Positions 3,195-25,180 of a stretch of 32,000 nucleotides of DNA are shown piece by piece (within the stretch, counting starts at the first letter, position 1; the number at the start of each line of letters is the position of its first letter). The notes beneath the pieces were generated by a model, which worked only from the letters and a program-made list of their open reading frames with translations, had not been told where the DNA came from and ran no database searches. Source of the stretch: Isorropodon fossajaponicum endosymbiont JTNG4 (GTDB taxonomy: Bacteria > Pseudomonadota > Gammaproteobacteria > PS1 > Pseudothioglobaceae); contig NZ_AP013043.1 in assembly GCF_016592615.1 (NCBI RefSeq), forward strand, positions 510,001 to 542,000. Direction: 5' to 3'. A program made the translations under genes and the position numbers.

Positions 3195-3848
3195 GACCCT
3201 GTAAACCAGATTGTGTAAACCCTCATATTTTATAATCCCCGAAAAGGAGAAAAAACATGAGTAACACAATACCAAGAAACAAAAAAAAGCAACTTAACAA
3301 CACAGGCATCAACCAGAAAAAGCTCCGTGCTTTTGCTGATGAACTTGCCAAAGACATCCACACCCAAGATGATTTAGCAGATCTAGCTGCTTCACTGGTT
3401 AAAATGACCATTGAAGCAGCATTAGGTGCTGAGATGGAACATCATCTTGGTTATCCAAAATATGGGCAAAATAGCAGCGAGCTTAATACAGACAGCAATG
3501 CTCGTAATGGCTATTACCCTAAAACCGTCAAAGGCAATCATGGTGAAGTTGAACTTGCTATCCCAAGAGACCGCAGAGGTAGCTTTGAACCTTTAATTAT
3601 TGAAAAAGGTCAAACGCCGATTGGGTGCTTTTGATAGTCAGATATTAAGCCTATATGCCAAAGGCATAGGTACCCGTGACATCGTCTCAACCTTTAAAGA
3701 AATGTATGATGTAGACATCTCAGCAACATTGGTATCCAATGTCACTCAGCAGGCGGTTATCACCCAAGCGATTGAATGGCGTAATCGTCCACTTGATGAA
3801 ATTTACCTATTGTCTATTTAGATGGTATTGTCATTAAAGTTAGGCAAA
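3195..3848 (+). mobile_element. IS256-family insertion sequence, 5' part only (copy B, truncated and frameshifted)
   Basis: Left terminal IR at 3195-3224. The transposase N-terminal region follows and then stops abruptly at about 3848, where unrelated duplicated DNA begins. Confidence 0.85.
3257..3848 (+). pseudogene. IS256-family transposase pseudogene (N-terminal about 195 codons; two frameshifts plus 3' truncation)
   Basis: ORFs 3257-3634 and 3600-3821 are consecutive pieces of one transposase (...FEPLIIEKGQT / RLGAFDSQILSLYAKG...). An extra C sits near 3615 and one base is lost near 3806. A third frame reads YLDGIVIKVRQ and then ends. Confidence 0.85.
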
Positions 3849-3928
3849 GAGTTCATATAAATTGTGCACCAATTCTTGATTGAGGTTAAGATTGATATTT
3901 TTTACCATCAGCACTTGAAAAAACAATC
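3849..3928. repeat. Direct duplicate of 719-797 (internal piece of the 620-1153 gene), fused to the truncated IS
   Basis: gagttcatataaattgtgcaccaattcttgattgaggttaagattgatatttt(t)taccatcagcacttgaaaaaacaatc is identical apart from one extra T in the T-run. Confidence 0.9.
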
Positions 3929-4048: not shown

Positions 4049-5128
4049 ATGAGCCAAGTTTATAACTTTAGTGCTGGTCCTGCTATGTTGCCAACACAAG
4101 TACTAAAACAAATGCAAGATGAGTTATTAGAATATGGCAATGCACATGCATCGGTGATGGAAATTTCGCATCGTGGTGGTGATTTTATGGCAATGGCGAA
4201 AAAATCAGAACAAGATTTAAGAGACTTGATGGGCATTCCCAGTCACTATAAAGTTTTGTTTTTGCAAGGGGGTGCGTCGGCTCAATTTTCAATGGTGCCG
4301 ATTAATTTACTTCAGGGAAAAACTAAGGCTAATTATGCACATACGGGTCATTGGTCTAAAAAGGCAATTGCTGAAGGTAAGCGTTATTGCGAAGTAAACA
4401 TTTGCACCGACAGCTCAGACAATAAATATACCAATATTGATGCCTTTGAAAATTGGAACATTGACCCTGATGGTGCTTATTTACATTACACGCCTAATGA
4501 AACTATCGCAGGCTTAGAATTTGACTATGTGCCAGAGGTGGGTATGCCACTTGTGGCTGACATGTCATCAAGTATTTTGTCGCGTGAGGTTGATGTGTCA
4601 AAGTATGGTGTTATTTATGCGGGTGCGCAAAAAAATATTGGTATTGCAGGGTTGACAATTGTGATTGTTAGAGAGGATTTGATGGGCAATGTGGTGGCTA
4701 ATCAACCCGTGTTGTTTGACTATACAACGCAAGCGAATAATGATTCAATGTATAACACGCCATCAACTTATCCTTGGTACGTGGCATCTCGTGTGTTTGA
4801 ATGGCTTAAACAACAAGGCGGATTGAGCGCTATAGCTAAGATTAATCAAACCAAGGCAAAAACACTTTATGATGCGATTGATGGTTCTGATTTTTACTCA
4901 AACCCAGTGGCAATAAAATATCGCTCTCGGATGAACGTGACATTTTTGCTAGCTGATGAAAGCCTCAATGGCTTGTTTTTGGAAAAAGCAGCCGCTAATA
5001 ATTTAATCACCTTAAAAGGCTATCGTAGTGTGGGCGGTATGCGTGCTAGCATTTATAATGCTATGCCACAAGAGGGCATTAATGAATTGGTGAATTTTAT
5101 GAAAGCATTTGAAAAGGAAAACACCTAA
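4049..5128 (+). CDS. serC: Phosphoserine aminotransferase
   Basis: MSQVYNFSAGPAMLP... N-terminus, 359 aa, class V aminotransferase layout, with AGGAG 8 nt upstream. Confidence 0.9.
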   Translation: MSQVYNFSAGPAMLPTQVLKQMQDELLEYGNAHASVMEISHRGGDFMAMAKKSEQDLRDLMGIPSHYKVLFLQGGASAQFSMVPINLLQGKTKANYAHTGHWSKKAIAEGKRYCEVNICTDSSDNKYTNIDAFENWNIDPDGAYLHYTPNETIAGLEFDYVPEVGMPLVADMSSSILSREVDVSKYGVIYAGAQKNIGIAGLTIVIVREDLMGNVVANQPVLFDYTTQANNDSMYNTPSTYPWYVASRVFEWLKQQGGLSAIAKINQTKAKTLYDAIDGSDFYSNPVAIKYRSRMNVTFLLADESLNGLFLEKAAANNLITLKGYRSVGGMRASIYNAMPQEGINELVNFMKAFEKENT

Positions 5129-10754: not shown

Positions 10755-11096
10755 TTAGTAACCACCTTTGCGTTTCGTTTCAGGCAATCCAGCAATTTTA
10801 CCCGCCTGCTTGGCAGGGCCTTTTGGAAATAATGCATATAACTCTTTGGTGCTTAACTTACCTTCCCAATCATCTTTTAAGCCTTTAACCATGTTGCGTT
10901 CGTTAGGTTGGTTGGCGTTGTTATTGATGTATTCACCACGTAAAAAATTAATTAATTTGAAGCTGTCATCTGTTAAGTTAACACCTTCTTCTTCTGCTAA
11001 CTCACGAGCAACGTCTTCATTCCACTCATTAAGATCTTTTAGATAACCATGATCATCTCTTTCTAAATCAGCTAATACCATTTCTTTCTCCATCAA
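10755..11096 (-). CDS. DsrC/TusE-family protein lacking the conserved C-terminal cysteines
   Basis: ...LFPKGPAKQAGKIAGLPETKRKGGY matches the TusE/DsrC tail (LFPKGPAKQA.KIAGLPKP..C.). Gly replaces the upstream Cys and there is no penultimate Cys. Confidence 0.8.
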   Translation of the reverse strand: MMEKEMVLADLERDDHGYLKDLNEWNEDVARELAEEEGVNLTDDSFKLINFLRGEYINNNANQPNERNMVKGLKDDWEGKLSTKELYALFPKGPAKQAGKIAGLPETKRKGGY

Positions 11097-15682: not shown

Positions 15683-15988
15683 ATGAGCGAAATAACATTA
15701 TTAGAAAAAGAAGAAGACATTGAAAAAGCAACAAGAGCTTTAAAAGCAATGGCACATCCACTGCGTTTAAAGATTTTATGCGCACTAAAAAATGACGAAT
15801 TACCTGTATTAGAAATTGTAAAAAAAGTGGGCTCTTCACAATCTAATATTTCACAACATATTGACATTCTTAGAACTAAAAATATTGTCGAATCTCGGCG
15901 TGATGGCAATAAAGTACTCTGTAAGGTTAAAGATGCCAAGGTTTTAAAATTAGTATCTAATATACAGGCAGTGTTCTGCTCTGAATAA
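15683..15988 (+). CDS. ArsR/SmtB-family transcriptional regulator
   Basis: LKAMAHPLRLKILCAL...LPVLEIVKKVGSSQSNISQHIDILRTKNIV winged-HTH signature. Confidence 0.8.
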   Translation: MSEITLLEKEEDIEKATRALKAMAHPLRLKILCALKNDELPVLEIVKKVGSSQSNISQHIDILRTKNIVESRRDGNKVLCKVKDAKVLKLVSNIQAVFCSE

Positions 15989-16106: not shown

Positions 16107-16886
16107 ATGACTTACCCAACCATTAATCCAATTGCAATAGATTTAGGCTTTGTACAAATCTATTGGTATGGGTTGATGTATTTGATGGCTTTCTTAGCGG
16201 CTTATTTGTTGGCAAATTATCGTGCTAAGCAACTTAACAGCTGGAATGCACAACAAATTGAAGATTTAATTTTTTATGGTGCAATTGGTGTGGTTGCTGG
16301 TGGTCGTTTGGGCTACATGTTGTTTTACAATTTGCCAAATTTTTTATCCGATCCTTTGTTAATTTTCGCTATTCAAGATGGCGGTATGTCATTTCACGGT
16401 GGTTTTTTAGGCGTATTGTTGGCAATGGTTTTATTTAATCGAAAATATAACAAAACTTTTTTTACCACAATGGATTTTGTTGCACCACTTGTGCCATTAG
16501 GATTGGGTTTTGGCAGAATGGGTAATTTTATTAACATTGAACTTTGGGGCAAAATAACCACCAGTCCATTTGGCATGTACATTGAACAACAAGGTGTGAG
16601 CCGATATCCATCACAATTATTTGAAGCATTTTTAGAAGGTTTAATTTTATTTATTATTCTTTGGGTGTTTAGTAACAAATTGCGCCCATCCATGTCAATT
16701 TCAGCATTATTTTTGATTTTCTATGGTTTGTTTAGATTTATAATTGAGTTTGTTCGAGTGCCAGATGTGCAATTGGGTTATTTGGCTTTTGGTTGGCTTA
16801 CCATGGGGCAATTATTAAGCCTACCAATGGTAGTACTTGGTATTGTGCTATTGCGAAAAGCATATCTTAACAAGGAAACAATGTGA
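16107..16886 (+). CDS. lgt: Prolipoprotein diacylglyceryl transferase
   Basis: [25 protein letters not shown]... and [15 protein letters not shown] motifs. The ATG at 16107 avoids overlapping the tRNA. Confidence 0.9.
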
Positions 16887-17677
16887 AGCAATACTTAGAT
16901 TTTTTAAGGCTGGTTAAAAATACTGGCACCAACAAAACTGACAGAACAGGTACAGGAACAACCAGTTTGTTTGGACACCAAATGCGTTTTGATTTATCCA
17001 AAGGTTTTCCACTTGTAACCACCAAGCGCGTACATTTGCCTTCGGTTGTACACGAATTGTTGTGGTTTCTTAGTGGTGATACTAACATTAAATATTTACA
17101 AGAAAATGGCGTGCGAATTTGGAATGAATGGGCGGATAAGAATGGGGATTTGGGTCCAGTTTACGGTGCGCAGTGGCGTCATTGGCAAAATGCTAGAGGC
17201 GACAGTATTGACCAAATTACGCAAGTGGTAGCGCAAATCAAAAGCACGCCAGATTCTCGTAGAATTATTGTTTCAGCTTGGAATGTTGGTGAGTTGGAAA
17301 ATATGGCATTACCACCTTGCCATGCATTTTTCCAGTTTTACGTGGCTGATGGAAAGCTATCTTGCCAGTTGTACCAAAGAAGTGCAGATATTTTTCTTGG
17401 TGTGCCATTTAACATTGCTTCATATGCATTACTAACCCACATGATGGCGCAACAGTGTGATTTGGAAGTGGGTGATTTTATTTGGAGTGGCGGTGATTGC
17501 CATATTTATTCCAATCATACTAAACAAGTAGAAACACAATTGGCTCGCACCCCAAAAGCACTAGCAACACTTAAAATTAAGCGCAGGCCTAAGAGTATTT
17601 TTAATTACAGTTATGAAGATTTTGAATTTATAAATTATGTATTTGATGCGCCGATTAAGGCACCAGTTGCAATCTAA
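16883..17677 (+). CDS. thyA: Thymidylate synthase (ThyA type)
   Basis: MKQYLDFL...RTGTGT..., [12 protein letters not shown] active-site Cys. GTG start overlaps the lgt stop, and lgt-thyA synteny is conserved. Confidence 0.92.
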
Positions 17678-17678
17678 A

Positions 17679-18716
17679 TCATTTCCAAATATCTACTGTA
17701 ACACTAACACCTTGAGCGCGAAGCTTATCTGACTTATCTTCTAAATAACGCTGAAAGTTTGGCTGGTGTTTGTATTCTCCTGAAGTGACGTAAGTCATTA
17801 TGCCGTGAAAGTGATAGGCTTTAAAAAAAGCATCTTTTCTGATAATTTCTTTGCCTTGTTTGTCAAAAAACACAATGGCTGGCTTGTAAGTAAGTTTTAA
17901 ATCCTCATACCATTTCTTGGCAGTGGTTCGCTTGCCTGATGGGGTGATAATTTTAGTCTCTGATAGAACATTAAGCTGTACCACTTGCATGGTTTTTAGT
18001 AAGGCTTTGGTTTGTTTTAGCTGCATGAGCGTTTTATGAAAGGTGTTACATTCTTGACAATTAGGTTCTTCAAAAAAAACGGCCAAATAATTTTGCGCTG
18101 GCAAGGTTTTATTGCGAGATAGCATGTGTGGTGGTGTTCCGAATAATGAATTTTTATTAAGGCTACCTGTTTTATCTTTTTTAAGATTGTTGGTATAACT
18201 AGAAAAACTTTGATTTAAATATTTTTTGGTAGCAACATAGTCAAGTACTTTGTGCATTTTTTCAACCGATTGATAGCCATTAAGCCTAAGCACGCTATCA
18301 CCTTTTGAGTTTAAAAAGACAAGGGTAGGAGTGAATTGTACTTTCATCAAAGCTGAAAATTCTTTTTCTGTCAATTCTCTGCCCTGCCAGTCAGTCAAAT
18401 CTCTATCGCCCCACATATTTGTTTCAATAACGTCAAAATCTTTTTGTAGTTTGGCGACTAAAGAAGCATTGTGAAAATTATCTTCAACCAATTTGGCGCA
18501 ATAAGGGCAGCTATTTTGATGAAAGTAAATCATCACATGTTTGTTATTGTCTGTTGCCTCTTCTAAGTCTTCAGAAAAATCCATAAAAGAAGCTTTAAAC
18601 CAATTAGGCACCTCGTCAACGACTTTAGCACCTAAAAATTCACCTTCTTTCAAAGGTTCAATTGCAATAGATGAACATGAGACAAATAAAGAAAACAATA
18701 GTATTAAAGCACGCAC
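17679..18716 (-). CDS. Secreted thioredoxin-fold protein with two Trx-like modules (CPYC and CQEC motifs)
   Basis: Signal peptide MRALILLFSLFVSCSSIA. CxxC motifs at ...HQNSCPYCAKL... and ...EEPNCQECNTF..., each followed by Trx-like spacing. Confidence 0.65.
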   Translation of the reverse strand: MRALILLFSLFVSCSSIAIEPLKEGEFLGAKVVDEVPNWFKASFMDFSEDLEEATDNNKHVMIYFHQNSCPYCAKLVEDNFHNASLVAKLQKDFDVIETNMWGDRDLTDWQGRELTEKEFSALMKVQFTPTLVFLNSKGDSVLRLNGYQSVEKMHKVLDYVATKKYLNQSFSSYTNNLKKDKTGSLNKNSLFGTPPHMLSRNKTLPAQNYLAVFFEEPNCQECNTFHKTLMQLKQTKALLKTMQVVQLNVLSETKIITPSGKRTTAKKWYEDLKLTYKPAIVFFDKQGKEIIRKDAFFKAYHFHGIMTYVTSGEYKHQPNFQRYLEDKSDKLRAQGVSVTVDIWK

Positions 18717-18777: not shown

Positions 18778-19440
18778 TTAGATGCTTGTGATGTCTTTGT
18801 GTGGAATAAACAATCCACAGCCTAGTAAGCGATAATTACCAAGACCTTTTTCTTGTAATAATACTGATTCATCTTTTTTTAAATCAGCTACCATTAGCGA
18901 GCGAGTATGGATAATACGAGTGTCGGTTTTAATGTTATTTTCAAGACCAGCCATCATTTTTTTAACAGAAATGCCAAGTGTTTTTAATTGTTCAAAAGTT
19001 ACTTGTAAGAAATTCTCCTCACTCATTGCCACATTACAGGCAACATTTTTTGCAAATAGTACAGGCATATCACTGAGTAATTTTGGTTTTAAAGATTTGA
19101 TAATCTTTATTTGATATTTGCCTAAATCTAGTGTTTTATCAAGTAATTGATGAGTTTCATCAAGCCTATCTTTTGGTACTCTAATGATTAGTTTTGAGCG
19201 TTTGGAAGGGTAATAAAATCCATTTTCATGGTTTTGTGCCCAGCCGTTACCATCTGCCACGCTAATATTAAAGATACCAGCACTCGCCTTGTCAAGCCAT
19301 GGCAAGTGTTTAAGTAGTGCCTGTGCTAGTAAAAAGCTATGATCAATAGGTAGGATCTTAACAAAGATATTAAACACGGCATCTTGTGTGGTTTCAGGCA
19401 GCGTAAAATATTCTTTTTTAGCGTCTTCTTGCCAAAACAT
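18778..19440 (-). CDS. Orphan Cas6/Cmx6-like RAMP-family protein (tentative)
   Basis: C-terminal LQEKGLGNYRLLGCGLFIPHK carries the GxGxxxxxGxG glycine-rich loop typical of Cas6. The N-terminal LPIDHSFLLAQALLKHLPWL segment resembles the type I-MYXAN Cas6 (Cmx6) family as I recall it. Confidence 0.55.
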   Translation of the reverse strand: MFWQEDAKKEYFTLPETTQDAVFNIFVKILPIDHSFLLAQALLKHLPWLDKASAGIFNISVADGNGWAQNHENGFYYPSKRSKLIIRVPKDRLDETHQLLDKTLDLGKYQIKIIKSLKPKLLSDMPVLFAKNVACNVAMSEENFLQVTFEQLKTLGISVKKMMAGLENNIKTDTRIIHTRSLMVADLKKDESVLLQEKGLGNYRLLGCGLFIPHKDITSI

Positions 19441-19510: not shown

Positions 19511-20173
19511 ATGGAAAGATTACAAAAGAAAATTAATTACCAATTTAAAGATTTGTCTTTGTTAAAACTTGCCTTAACACATCGTTCCATGGGTAAAAAC
19601 AATAATGAACGTTTAGAATTTTTAGGTGATAGTATTTTGGGTGTGGTAATCTCAAAAGAGCTTTATCAGCGTTTTTCTCATATTGACGAAGGCAAATTGT
19701 CCCGATTAAGGTCATACTTAGTTAGGGGACAAACCTTGGCGCAGTTGGGCGCTGCATTAGAACTATCAAACAGTTTGATTCTAGGCTCTGGCGAGTTGAA
19801 AAGTGGTGGTTACAGGCGAGAATCTATCCAGGCAGATGCTGTTGAGGCAATATTTGGTGCAGTGTTATTGGATTCTAATTTTGAAACCACAAGTACGGTT
19901 ATTTTGGGTCTTTTTGAGATGTTATTAAACAATATCAGCCCAGACGATGATTCACTAAAAGACCCAAAGACACAATTACAAGAATACTTACAAAAGCGTG
20001 GTAACGTTTTACCAAAATATGAACTCATTGATACAACAGGCAAGGATCATAATGCAATATTTACAATAAATTGTCTTTTAAAAGACCAAAGCTTGCAAGT
20101 TAGCCAATCTGCCAAAAGCATTAAAAAAGCAGAACAATCTTGTGCACAAGCCTTATTAAAAAAACTAAAATAA
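19511..20173 (+). CDS. rnc: Ribonuclease III
   Basis: RNase III signature NERLEFLGDSILG and a C-terminal dsRBD. Confidence 0.92.
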   Translation: MERLQKKINYQFKDLSLLKLALTHRSMGKNNNERLEFLGDSILGVVISKELYQRFSHIDEGKLSRLRSYLVRGQTLAQLGAALELSNSLILGSGELKSGGYRRESIQADAVEAIFGAVLLDSNFETTSTVILGLFEMLLNNISPDDDSLKDPKTQLQEYLQKRGNVLPKYELIDTTGKDHNAIFTINCLLKDQSLQVSQSAKSIKKAEQSCAQALLKKLK

Positions 20174-25017: not shown

Positions 25018-25180
25018 AGAGACCTTTGCATAAATATGAACAATCATCAAAACACCATCTTTCATCAACTTGGGAATTTTTTAAAAATACCCTTAGCTCT
25101 GCTAGGTGTAGATTTAAAAAATTCCCAAGTTGATGAAAGATGGTGTTTTGTTAATCATCCCTATTTATGCAAAGGTCTCT
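25018..25180. repeat. 163-bp near-perfect inverted repeat / long hairpin (MITE-like), ending at the base before the lepA ATG
   Basis: Outer arms 25018-25036 / 25162-25180 (19 bp perfect). Inner arms 25048-25085 / 25113-25150 (38 bp perfect). There are 11-nt mismatched bubbles and a 27-nt apex with its own mini-stem. Confidence 0.9.

Follow-up and report, generated by a model that had tools for sequence, protein, structure and literature searches.

A Cas6-fold protein of a clam symbiont is the ortholog of a large dsr-linked family in sulfur-oxidizing bacteria

Introduction

Why would a clam symbiont keep an intact gene resembling cas6 when no CRISPR array and no other cas gene lies near it? 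The question is raised by a 32,000-nucleotide stretch of the genome of the Isorropodon fossajaponicum endosymbiont JTNG4 (contig NZ_AP013043.1, positions 510,001 to 542,000), a member of the SUP05 clade that lives in a vesicomyid clam. We refer to this whole stretch as the window. An initial annotation, made from the sequence alone, had described one of its open reading frames (ORF), at 18778-19440 on the minus strand, as an orphan Cas6/Cmx6-like RAMP protein in a housekeeping context and had suggested that the gene is under selection for a non-CRISPR role. Here, we report that it belongs to a large protein family of rDsr-type sulfur oxidizers, in which it usually sits in an operon divergent from dsrAB, and we consider what its product might do.

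Results

The ORF product is predicted to have a Cas6 fold

The ORF is intact, starts with ATG, and encodes 220 residues. When compared to profile databases, the protein matched Pfam PF09559 (Cas6) with an E value of 5.6e-43 and 147.6 bits, covering profile positions 2-190 of 191, and it scored 104.7 bits against NCBIfam TIGR02807 (cas6_cmx6), which is above the cut-off of 98.85, if marginally. The best match among the PADLOC Cas6 models was to PDLC01346 (E = 6.7e-65). Since three profiles concur, the resemblance to Cas6 is not due to chance. We then examined a structural model generated by AlphaFold2 (AF2) from an 85-sequence alignment, which had a predicted local distance difference test (pLDDT) score of 87.9 and a predicted TM score (pTM) of 0.84, while a single-sequence model with a pLDDT of 37.8 was discarded. 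The model displays two beta-alpha-beta-rich halves, i.e., the tandem ferredoxin-like (RNA recognition motif, RRM) domains that define the Cas6 superfamily. In a Foldseek search of the PDB, the top 47 matches were all Cas6, Cse3/Cas6e, or Cascade entries except for two weak aspartokinase matches. The best was the Cas6 of a type I-B CRISPR-associated transposon (CAST), 8fcu_B (E = 1.2e-15, TM score 0.80), with 8fcj_B also at the top. Judged by these profiles and the predicted fold, the product of the ORF is a genuine member of the Cmx6 branch with a Cas6 fold. The initial annotation had made this assignment and had proposed a profile search and a Foldseek search with a predicted structure as checks, both of which gave significant Cas6 matches. 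Its description of the position of the ORF, the 220-residue length, the glycine-rich C terminus, and the PIDH motif was borne out by translation.

Which of the Cas6 motifs are preserved was determined by counting residue conservation over 140 family representatives. The C-terminal glycine-rich loop that characterizes the Cas6 superfamily is present as GLGNYRLLGCG (residues 199-209), with G199, G201, G207, and G209 kept in 132-136 of the 140 representatives. It lies within the region QEKGLGNYRLLGCGLFIPHK (residues 196-215, positions 18796-18855, minus strand), which ends in a family-specific PHK. In this region, the conserved residues Q196, G199, G201, R204, G207, C208, G209, F211, and P213 are common to canonical Cmx6. 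Further positions are shared with the Cmx6 protein of Gloeothece: D20, P31, D33-H34, L38, R81, R83, R87, and F144. Among these, R81 is found in 139/140 representatives and R87 in 138/140. The motifs common to canonical Cmx6 are the ones that handle RNA in Cas6 proteins generally. D33-H34 is part of a PIDHS motif (residues 31-35, positions 19336-19350, minus strand) and is located in the AF2 secondary structure at the junction between strand 1 and helix 1, which is the site of the catalytic His in many Cas6 enzymes, as in the Cas6e and Cas6f structures. Among the 140 representatives, residue 34 is His in 122 and Tyr in 12, and in the alignment it coincides with the His found in the CRISPR-linked Cmx6 of Gloeothece. 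H34 is therefore a candidate catalytic His.

The family also has features of its own. Cas6 profiles begin at residue 20 of the protein and are preceded by a 19-residue N-terminal extension (MFWQE..., positions 19384-19440, minus strand) that is not found in canonical Cmx6 and carries a near-invariant W3 (128/140). An insertion loop containing DGNGW (positions 19240-19254, minus strand), in which N65-G66-W67 are nearly invariant, is missing in alignments from both canonical Cmx6 and type I-B CAST Cas6, and the corresponding loop 62-68 is modeled with low confidence. Overall, the nearly invariant family-specific residues are W3, W48, N65-G66-W67, E141, K161, G165, T179-R180-S181, and H214-K215. 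All the signatures of the dsr-linked family, namely MxWQE (as MFWQE), DGNGW, TRS at 179-181, and PHK, are present in the window protein.

No CRISPR-Cas system accompanies the gene

Neither TRF nor searches for direct repeats and seed chains detected a CRISPR array in the window, and Rfam likewise gave none, whether at the gathering threshold or at E ≤ 5. A PADLOC scan of 37 window ORFs returned the Cas6-like protein as the sole cas gene, and the other components of an I-MYXAN operon (cas3, cas8a1/cmx1, devR/cas7, devS/cas5, cas4-cas1, and cas2) are all missing from the 32 kb. The initial annotation had thus been right to report neither a repeat-spacer array nor a cas partner. The same picture was seen in 81 related loci, where a seed-chain scan detected no CRISPR array and where no cas family is found among the conserved neighbors. 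Two types of candidates were rejected. CRISPR-like seed chains in loci L013 and L081 are plain tandem repeats of 99 and 104 nt, respectively. The Csa3/CasR/CARF matches reported by PADLOC (Csa3 with E = 1e-17) all come from one ORF of 101 residues on the plus strand (15683-15988), next to an MlaC-like gene and a tRNA. The longer Csa3/CasR profiles matched this ORF over the helix-turn-helix (HTH) part only, and its Thioglobus ortholog is an ArsR-type winged HTH (wHTH) protein (HTH_5/HTH_20). Such matches could mislead automated cas calling.

Published counts for two relatives, Ruthia magnifica and Vesicomyosocius okutanii, list 0 CRISPR sites and 0 Cas proteins (PMC5361782). Orthologs of the window protein are nevertheless encoded in both, with 87% and 80% identity, respectively. 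Defunct cas1/cas2/cas3 remnants have been described in two Ruthia species (bioRxiv 10.1101/2020.10.19.345819).

A Cmx6-annotated Cas6 homolog with no cas genes nearby was also seen on a Gloeobacter morelensis plasmid, pGMOR1 (L085, 8968-9759), where the neighbors are hypothetical genes, two genes of the 3'-phosphoadenosine 5'-phosphosulfate (PAPS) reductase family, and two DNA methyltransferase genes. This may represent a separate non-CRISPR use of this branch of Cas6.

The family is widespread and usually encoded beside dsr genes

We wondered how widespread such proteins might be and in which genomic context they are found. An exhaustive HMMER search yielded 600 clusters at 50% identity (288 of them at E ≤ 1e-10), nearly all aligned from residue 1, and a profile search yielded 2845 clusters at 90% identity (E ≤ 1e-10). 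Using a pattern derived from a 10-sequence alignment, we scanned one-genome-per-species contigs and confirmed at least 597 loci, the best 80 of which were inspected. These 80 are mostly from sulfur-oxidizing Gammaproteobacteria (Acidiferrobacterales, Sulfuricaulis, Beggiatoaceae, Thiothrix, Cocleimonas, Chromatiales, and Ectothiorhodospiraceae), with a few Burkholderiales. Neighbors were then counted in the 76 loci from outside the SUP05 clade by neighbor clustering followed by targeted phmmer searches.

This revealed a conserved neighborhood. Of the loci whose flank extends for 4.5 kb or more, 45 of 49 have dsrA/dsrB (NIR_SIR), then dsrE and a true dsrC, on the opposite strand upstream. The strand of the Cas6-like gene itself carries, also upstream, genes for a TauD-like dioxygenase (57/65 loci) and a 65-residue protein (64/70), and often, directly before the Cas6-like gene, for a protein of ~235 residues. 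The preceding gene often overlaps the start of the Cas6-like gene or ends a few bases before it. A gene for a DsrC-like protein of the RspA type lies within 900 bp downstream in 60 of 70 loci and is often followed by a gene for a rhodanese or a 70-residue protein, with a YbiX-like Fe(II) dioxygenase gene close by. The usual operon is thus TauD-like, 65-residue protein, optional ~235-residue protein, Cas6-like, and RspA-type, then rhodanese or 70-residue protein, divergent from dsrABEFHC. In Chromatiaceae, the operon is represented by L044 and L079. Independent gene calls on a metagenome contig (L088) gave the same order, with dsrMK-C-H-F-E-B-A on one side and TauD, 65-residue, 232-residue, Cas6, DsrC-like, and rhodanese genes on the other. 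The partner proteins of 65, ~235, 70, and 146 residues belong to no Pfam or NCBIfam family, and those of 65 and ~235 residues have no match in the PDB.

The window gene is the SUP05-clade ortholog of this large family of rDsr-type sulfur-oxidizing bacteria. None of the dsrAB, TauD-like, and 65-residue protein genes is found in the 32-kb window, where the Cas6-like gene has a housekeeping context. This context is a lineage-specific relocation, the operon having been dispersed in the SUP05 lineage. The view of the gene as an orphan in a housekeeping context therefore stands as far as cas partners are concerned, but it misses the usual home of the family in an operon divergent from dsrAB and the fact that the RspA-type partner has been kept.

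The RspA-type partner is retained in the window

The partner gene, which the initial annotation had left out of its reading of the context, is encoded 7.7 kb from the Cas6-like gene on the same strand (10755-11096), both being embedded among housekeeping genes. It specifies a DsrC/TusE-like protein matching PF04358 (E = 4e-30) and TIGR03342 that ends in AGLPETKRKGGY and has no C-terminal Cys; its true start may be an internal ATG near 11081. Comparison of C termini identifies it as orthologous to the gene that directly follows the Cas6-like gene when the locus is dsr-linked. All 60 of these Cas6-adjacent DsrC-like proteins end in AGLPExxRKGGY, as opposed to AGLPKPTGCV in the true DsrC of the dsr operon. 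An RspA class has been named within the DsrC/TusE/RspA family (PMC8477390), and the window protein, in which both C-terminal cysteines are missing, fits it. The protein is 97% identical to its Ruthia ortholog, and with a dN/dS of 0.03 its gene is likewise under purifying selection. Since this ortholog is present, the symbiont has kept both the Cas6-like and the RspA-type genes. We found no publication that connects RspA-type proteins with a Cas6 homolog.

In nine loci that are Acidiferrobacterales-like (L009, L011, L012, L015, L016, L019, L029, L042, and L049), the motif TTTGTATCATTCGCG recurs in the spacer between the Cas6-like and RspA-type genes. An internal promoter and a binding site are both possible readings of it.

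The Cas6-like gene is under purifying selection and was relocated in one lineage

The window protein is 100% identical to the database entry from JTNG4, and its orthologs throughout the SUP05 clade (in Ruthia magnifica, Vesicomyosocius, Thioglobus autotrophicus, and Bathymodiolus symbionts) are 60-95% identical to it. Pairwise dN/dS values are 0.09-0.24 for the Cas6-like gene and 0.04-0.15 for neighboring housekeeping genes. Selection thus maintains the gene, and together with the lack of CRISPR and cas genes nearby this makes the earlier proposal of selection for a non-CRISPR role a sensible one.

In the window, the Cas6-like gene is flanked on one side, at a distance of 61 bp, by a gene for a two-module thioredoxin-like secreted protein of 345 residues (17679-18716, minus strand; PF13098/PF13899) and on the other, at a distance of 70 bp, by the divergent rnc gene for RNase III (19511-20173, plus strand), which heads rnc-era-recO-pdxJ-acpS. 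Both distances agree with those initially reported, and how far either linkage is conserved had been posed as a question. The rnc gene is divergent from the Cas6-like gene in all five SUP05-clade loci (L001-L005) and in two distant metagenomic relatives, L086 and L087, in which the Cas6-like protein is ~50% and ~40% identical, respectively, and Era ~63% identical. In the 76 loci from other species, rnc was not found within 10 kb. In L090, the Cas6-like gene follows a LysM/M23 peptidase gene, a different housekeeping context. Since the rnc arrangement is kept in L001-L005, L086, and L087 while that of L090 differs, it is an old relocation common to one lineage rather than a family-wide feature. 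The thioredoxin-like gene lies downstream in L001, L002, L004, and L005, whereas neither L003 nor any of the 76 other loci has it there. We thus rejected a conserved linkage to this gene outside the SUP05 clade, and the ancestral system probably did not include it.

A second neighbor with a thiol-redox function was observed in L087, where the thioredoxin-like gene of SUP05 is replaced by a CcmH-like (periplasmic thiol-redox) gene (4083-4517) that overlaps the 3' end of the Cas6-like gene. This may be a coincidence.

A palindromic element lies in the divergent dsrA promoter region

The intergenic region between dsrA and the TauD-like gene (for example 1002-1467 in L067) is ~170-850 bp long, mostly 300-550 bp. 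Its one strongly conserved element is bipartite and consists of CCTACCCATGGGGTG and, ~20 nt further on, the palindrome TATCCC-N4-GGGATA. The element lies upstream of dsrA, where the two divergent promoters are expected, and was detected with at most two mismatches in 43 of 58 loci (L006-L080). At the same tolerance, the palindrome has no copy in the window.

In four loci (L016, L030, L031, and L042), a strong 9-bp GC hairpin, GACGCCGGG-loop-CCCGGCGUC, is found between dsrB and dsrE. It is not present in most loci and may be an intra-operon element for mRNA stability or attenuation.

Other features of the window

The remainder of the window consists of housekeeping genes and two fragments of a Mutator-family transposase, corresponding to a C-terminal part (77-514) and an N-terminal part (3257-3634). 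A direct repeat of ~90 nt (714-797 and 3844-3928), with copies 98-100% identical and 3.13 kb apart, flanks lolCDE-like genes. The fragments and the repeat look like remnants of insertion sequence (IS) activity or of a duplication. An inverted repeat at 25018-25180, with 80-nt arms that are 88% complementary and 3 nt apart, occupies the ahpC-lepA intergenic region and extends into the annotated TTG start of lepA. It has Rfam matches of the miRNA-precursor-like type on both strands and may be an element resembling a miniature inverted-repeat transposable element (MITE) or a regulatory hairpin. Finally, the ThyA protein encoded at 16883-17677 is 27-28% identical to the thymidylate synthase encoded next to lgt in Thioglobus loci L001 and L004. 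The genes flanking thymidylate synthase are ~80% identical between these loci and the window, which suggests a gene replacement in one lineage.

Discussion

A possible role in handling host RNA

What might a Cas6-fold protein do beside dsr genes? We consider it somewhat probable, on the whole, that this dsr-linked family binds and probably cleaves host RNA and thereby contributes to post-transcriptional control of dsr genes. Because D33-H34, the strand carrying R81/R83/R87, and the glycine-rich loop are kept, the protein would still bind, and probably cleave, a specific structured host RNA. Its conserved position, beside the dsr promoter region and beside the gene for an HTH-bearing DsrC-like protein, suggests a regulatory module. 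In the mechanism that we propose, the Cas6-like protein would recognize and probably cut a defined structured host RNA and would form, together with RspA-type proteins, a module that controls the dsr genes for sulfur oxidation and could tune their expression after transcription by processing or stabilizing an mRNA. New specificity or partner contacts might be supplied by the N-terminal Trp extension, the GNGW loop, the TRS motif, and the PHK tail. Sequence, predicted structure, and gene context thus suggest that the protein may bind or cleave RNA in controlling the dsr regulon. A more far-reaching version, possible though rather doubtful as a whole, is that a single RAMP endoribonuclease of the Cas6 type was recruited early by the oxidative Dsr pathway, which it would serve as a dedicated regulator after transcription or as a subunit handling RNA, with the Cys-less DsrC-like protein as its partner. 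It would since have been passed on as a core accessory gene to hundreds of sulfur-oxidizing species, including animal symbionts that are CRISPR-free and genome-reduced.

Several observations weigh against an RNA-handling role in dsr control. We looked for an RNA target and found none. In the window and three dsr-type loci, Rfam (E ≤ 5) gave no CRISPR-DR and no other relevant match, and neither the spacers between the Cas6-like and RspA-type genes nor those between dsrB and dsrE contain a universally conserved hairpin. The palindrome TATCCC-N4-GGGATA was rejected as an RNA hairpin, its arms varying without compensation; the variants are C-A, C-T, and T-T combinations, with only one double change. 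Because arm changes are noncompensatory, the palindrome resembles an operator in DNA more than a stem in RNA, and it is likely to be bound by a transcription factor. In ~13% of the representatives, Tyr or another residue replaces His34, and several of the invariant residues are not Cas6-like, so that the fold may be reused for something other than RNA. The loci inspected were also those most similar to the query (the best 80 of at least 597, plus a few metagenome contigs).

Alternative explanations

The main rival builds on the idea of a reused fold. A Cas6 fold that no longer engages RNA could act as a scaffold or adaptor, forming a complex with the 65-residue, ~235-residue, and RspA-type proteins that might modulate sulfur trafficking by DsrAB/DsrEFH or present substrate to the neighboring 2-oxoglutarate oxygenases. 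The tight or overlapping junctions with the small upstream genes are what such a complex would predict, as are the many invariant family-specific residues not seen in canonical Cmx6. The conserved neighbors, which without exception are oxygenases, sulfur-relay proteins, or unknown proteins and include no RNA enzyme, and the failure to find a conserved RNA hairpin point in the same direction. Yet the residues expected to handle RNA (D33-H34, R81, R83, R87, and the glycine-rich loop) are among the most conserved positions, and SUP05 genomes keep the Cas6-like gene with no 65-residue, ~235-residue, or TauD-like gene nearby. We regard this explanation as credible but unlikely.

The two other explanations take their lead from the window itself and from the database name of the protein. 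The gene next door suggests that the protein could be a partner of RNase III, or of housekeeping RNA processing, with the linkage to dsr elsewhere being incidental, and the arrangement with a divergent rnc is indeed kept in all five SUP05 loci and in both L086 and L087. We find this improbable: not one of the 76 other loci has rnc within 10 kb, rnc-era-recO-pdxJ is a generally stable block whose synteny in one lineage is to be expected, and L090 offers yet another housekeeping context. It is more improbable still, indeed very much so, that the protein processes crRNA in trans for a CRISPR-Cas system elsewhere or is an undecayed remnant of a lost one. Its TIGR02807 equivalog score just exceeds the cut-off, databases name it type I-MYXAN Cas6/Cmx6, and the defunct cas1/cas2/cas3 genes of the two Ruthia species are what a lost system might leave behind. 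Against this, neither the window nor the 81 related loci contain an array, conserved neighbors include no cas family, and orthologs are found in R. magnifica and V. okutanii, for which neither CRISPR sites nor Cas proteins have been counted. Purifying selection and conservation in ~600 species with a non-cas neighborhood likewise speak for another function, and the family, at 28% identity to a genuine I-MYXAN Cmx6, has insertions of its own.

Novelty and significance

The assignment of the window protein to the Cas6 family is not new, since databases already name it type I-MYXAN CRISPR-associated Cas6/Cmx6, although the equivalog name Cmx6 is probably wrong for this branch. In contrast, a branch of Cas6 beside dsr genes is apparently undescribed. 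Our literature search, mostly of open full text, found neither a dsr-linked Cas6 homolog nor a solo PF09559 protein, so that a prior mention is possible. Conserved neighborhoods suggest that a Cas6 may have been exapted into a sulfur-metabolism setting. If this is true, the family would be a clean and phylogenetically broad case of one Cas protein in core energy metabolism rather than in defense and a natural system in which to study how the specificity of a Cas6 for RNA or for proteins can shift. It would also draw attention to an uncharacterized conserved operon directly upstream of dsrAB (TauD-like, 65-residue, Cas6-like, and Cys-less DsrC-like proteins) that, with its associated palindrome, is a candidate control module for rDsr, parts of which are kept even in clam and mussel symbionts. 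In practical terms, the current label on hundreds of genomes can inflate counts of CRISPR-Cas systems in sulfur oxidizers that are free of CRISPR.

Comparison with known systems

A canonical counterpart of type I-MYXAN (a variant of I-B) is the cas6 gene of plasmid pP742402 in Gloeothece citriformis PCC 7424 (WP_012599599.1; TIGR02807, PF09559), the product of which belongs to the same Pfam family and the same length class as the window protein. The two proteins are 28% identical. Common to both are a D-H dyad that follows strand 1, the strand with R81/R83/R87, and the C-terminal glycine-rich loop LQxxGxGxxRxxGCGxFxP. The window family has, in addition, the 19-residue N-terminal extension with W3, the GNGW insertion, the TRS motif, and the PHK tail. 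Their contexts are also very different, since the Gloeothece gene (L084) heads a cas6-cas3-cas8a1-devR-cas5-cas4/cas1-cas2 operon, whereas the window locus has neither cas partners nor an array.

The best structural match, Cas6 of type I-B CAST (PDB 8fcj/8fcu chain B; E ~1e-15, TM score 0.77-0.80, ~212 aligned columns), is also the only significant sequence match in the PDB (E = 5.6e-5). It exemplifies a Cas6 working outside classical immunity, yet one that processes crRNA from an array, within Cascade. It has Asn at the position of His34 and lacks the GNGW insertion.

A further parallel is provided by derived modules that have no array, such as the Streptomyces I-E cas5-8 genes associated with a STAND NTPase and the haloarchaeal HRAMP (PMC8730458). 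The review of these modules makes no mention of a dsr-linked Cas6-like gene. As in the window family, Cas proteins of the RAMP family are conserved outside arrays in these systems and are presumed to have been exapted (PMC8730458). However, the Streptomyces and HRAMP modules are multigene, Cascade-like, and presumed to be defensive, while the family described here consists of a single Cas6-type gene in a dsr neighborhood.

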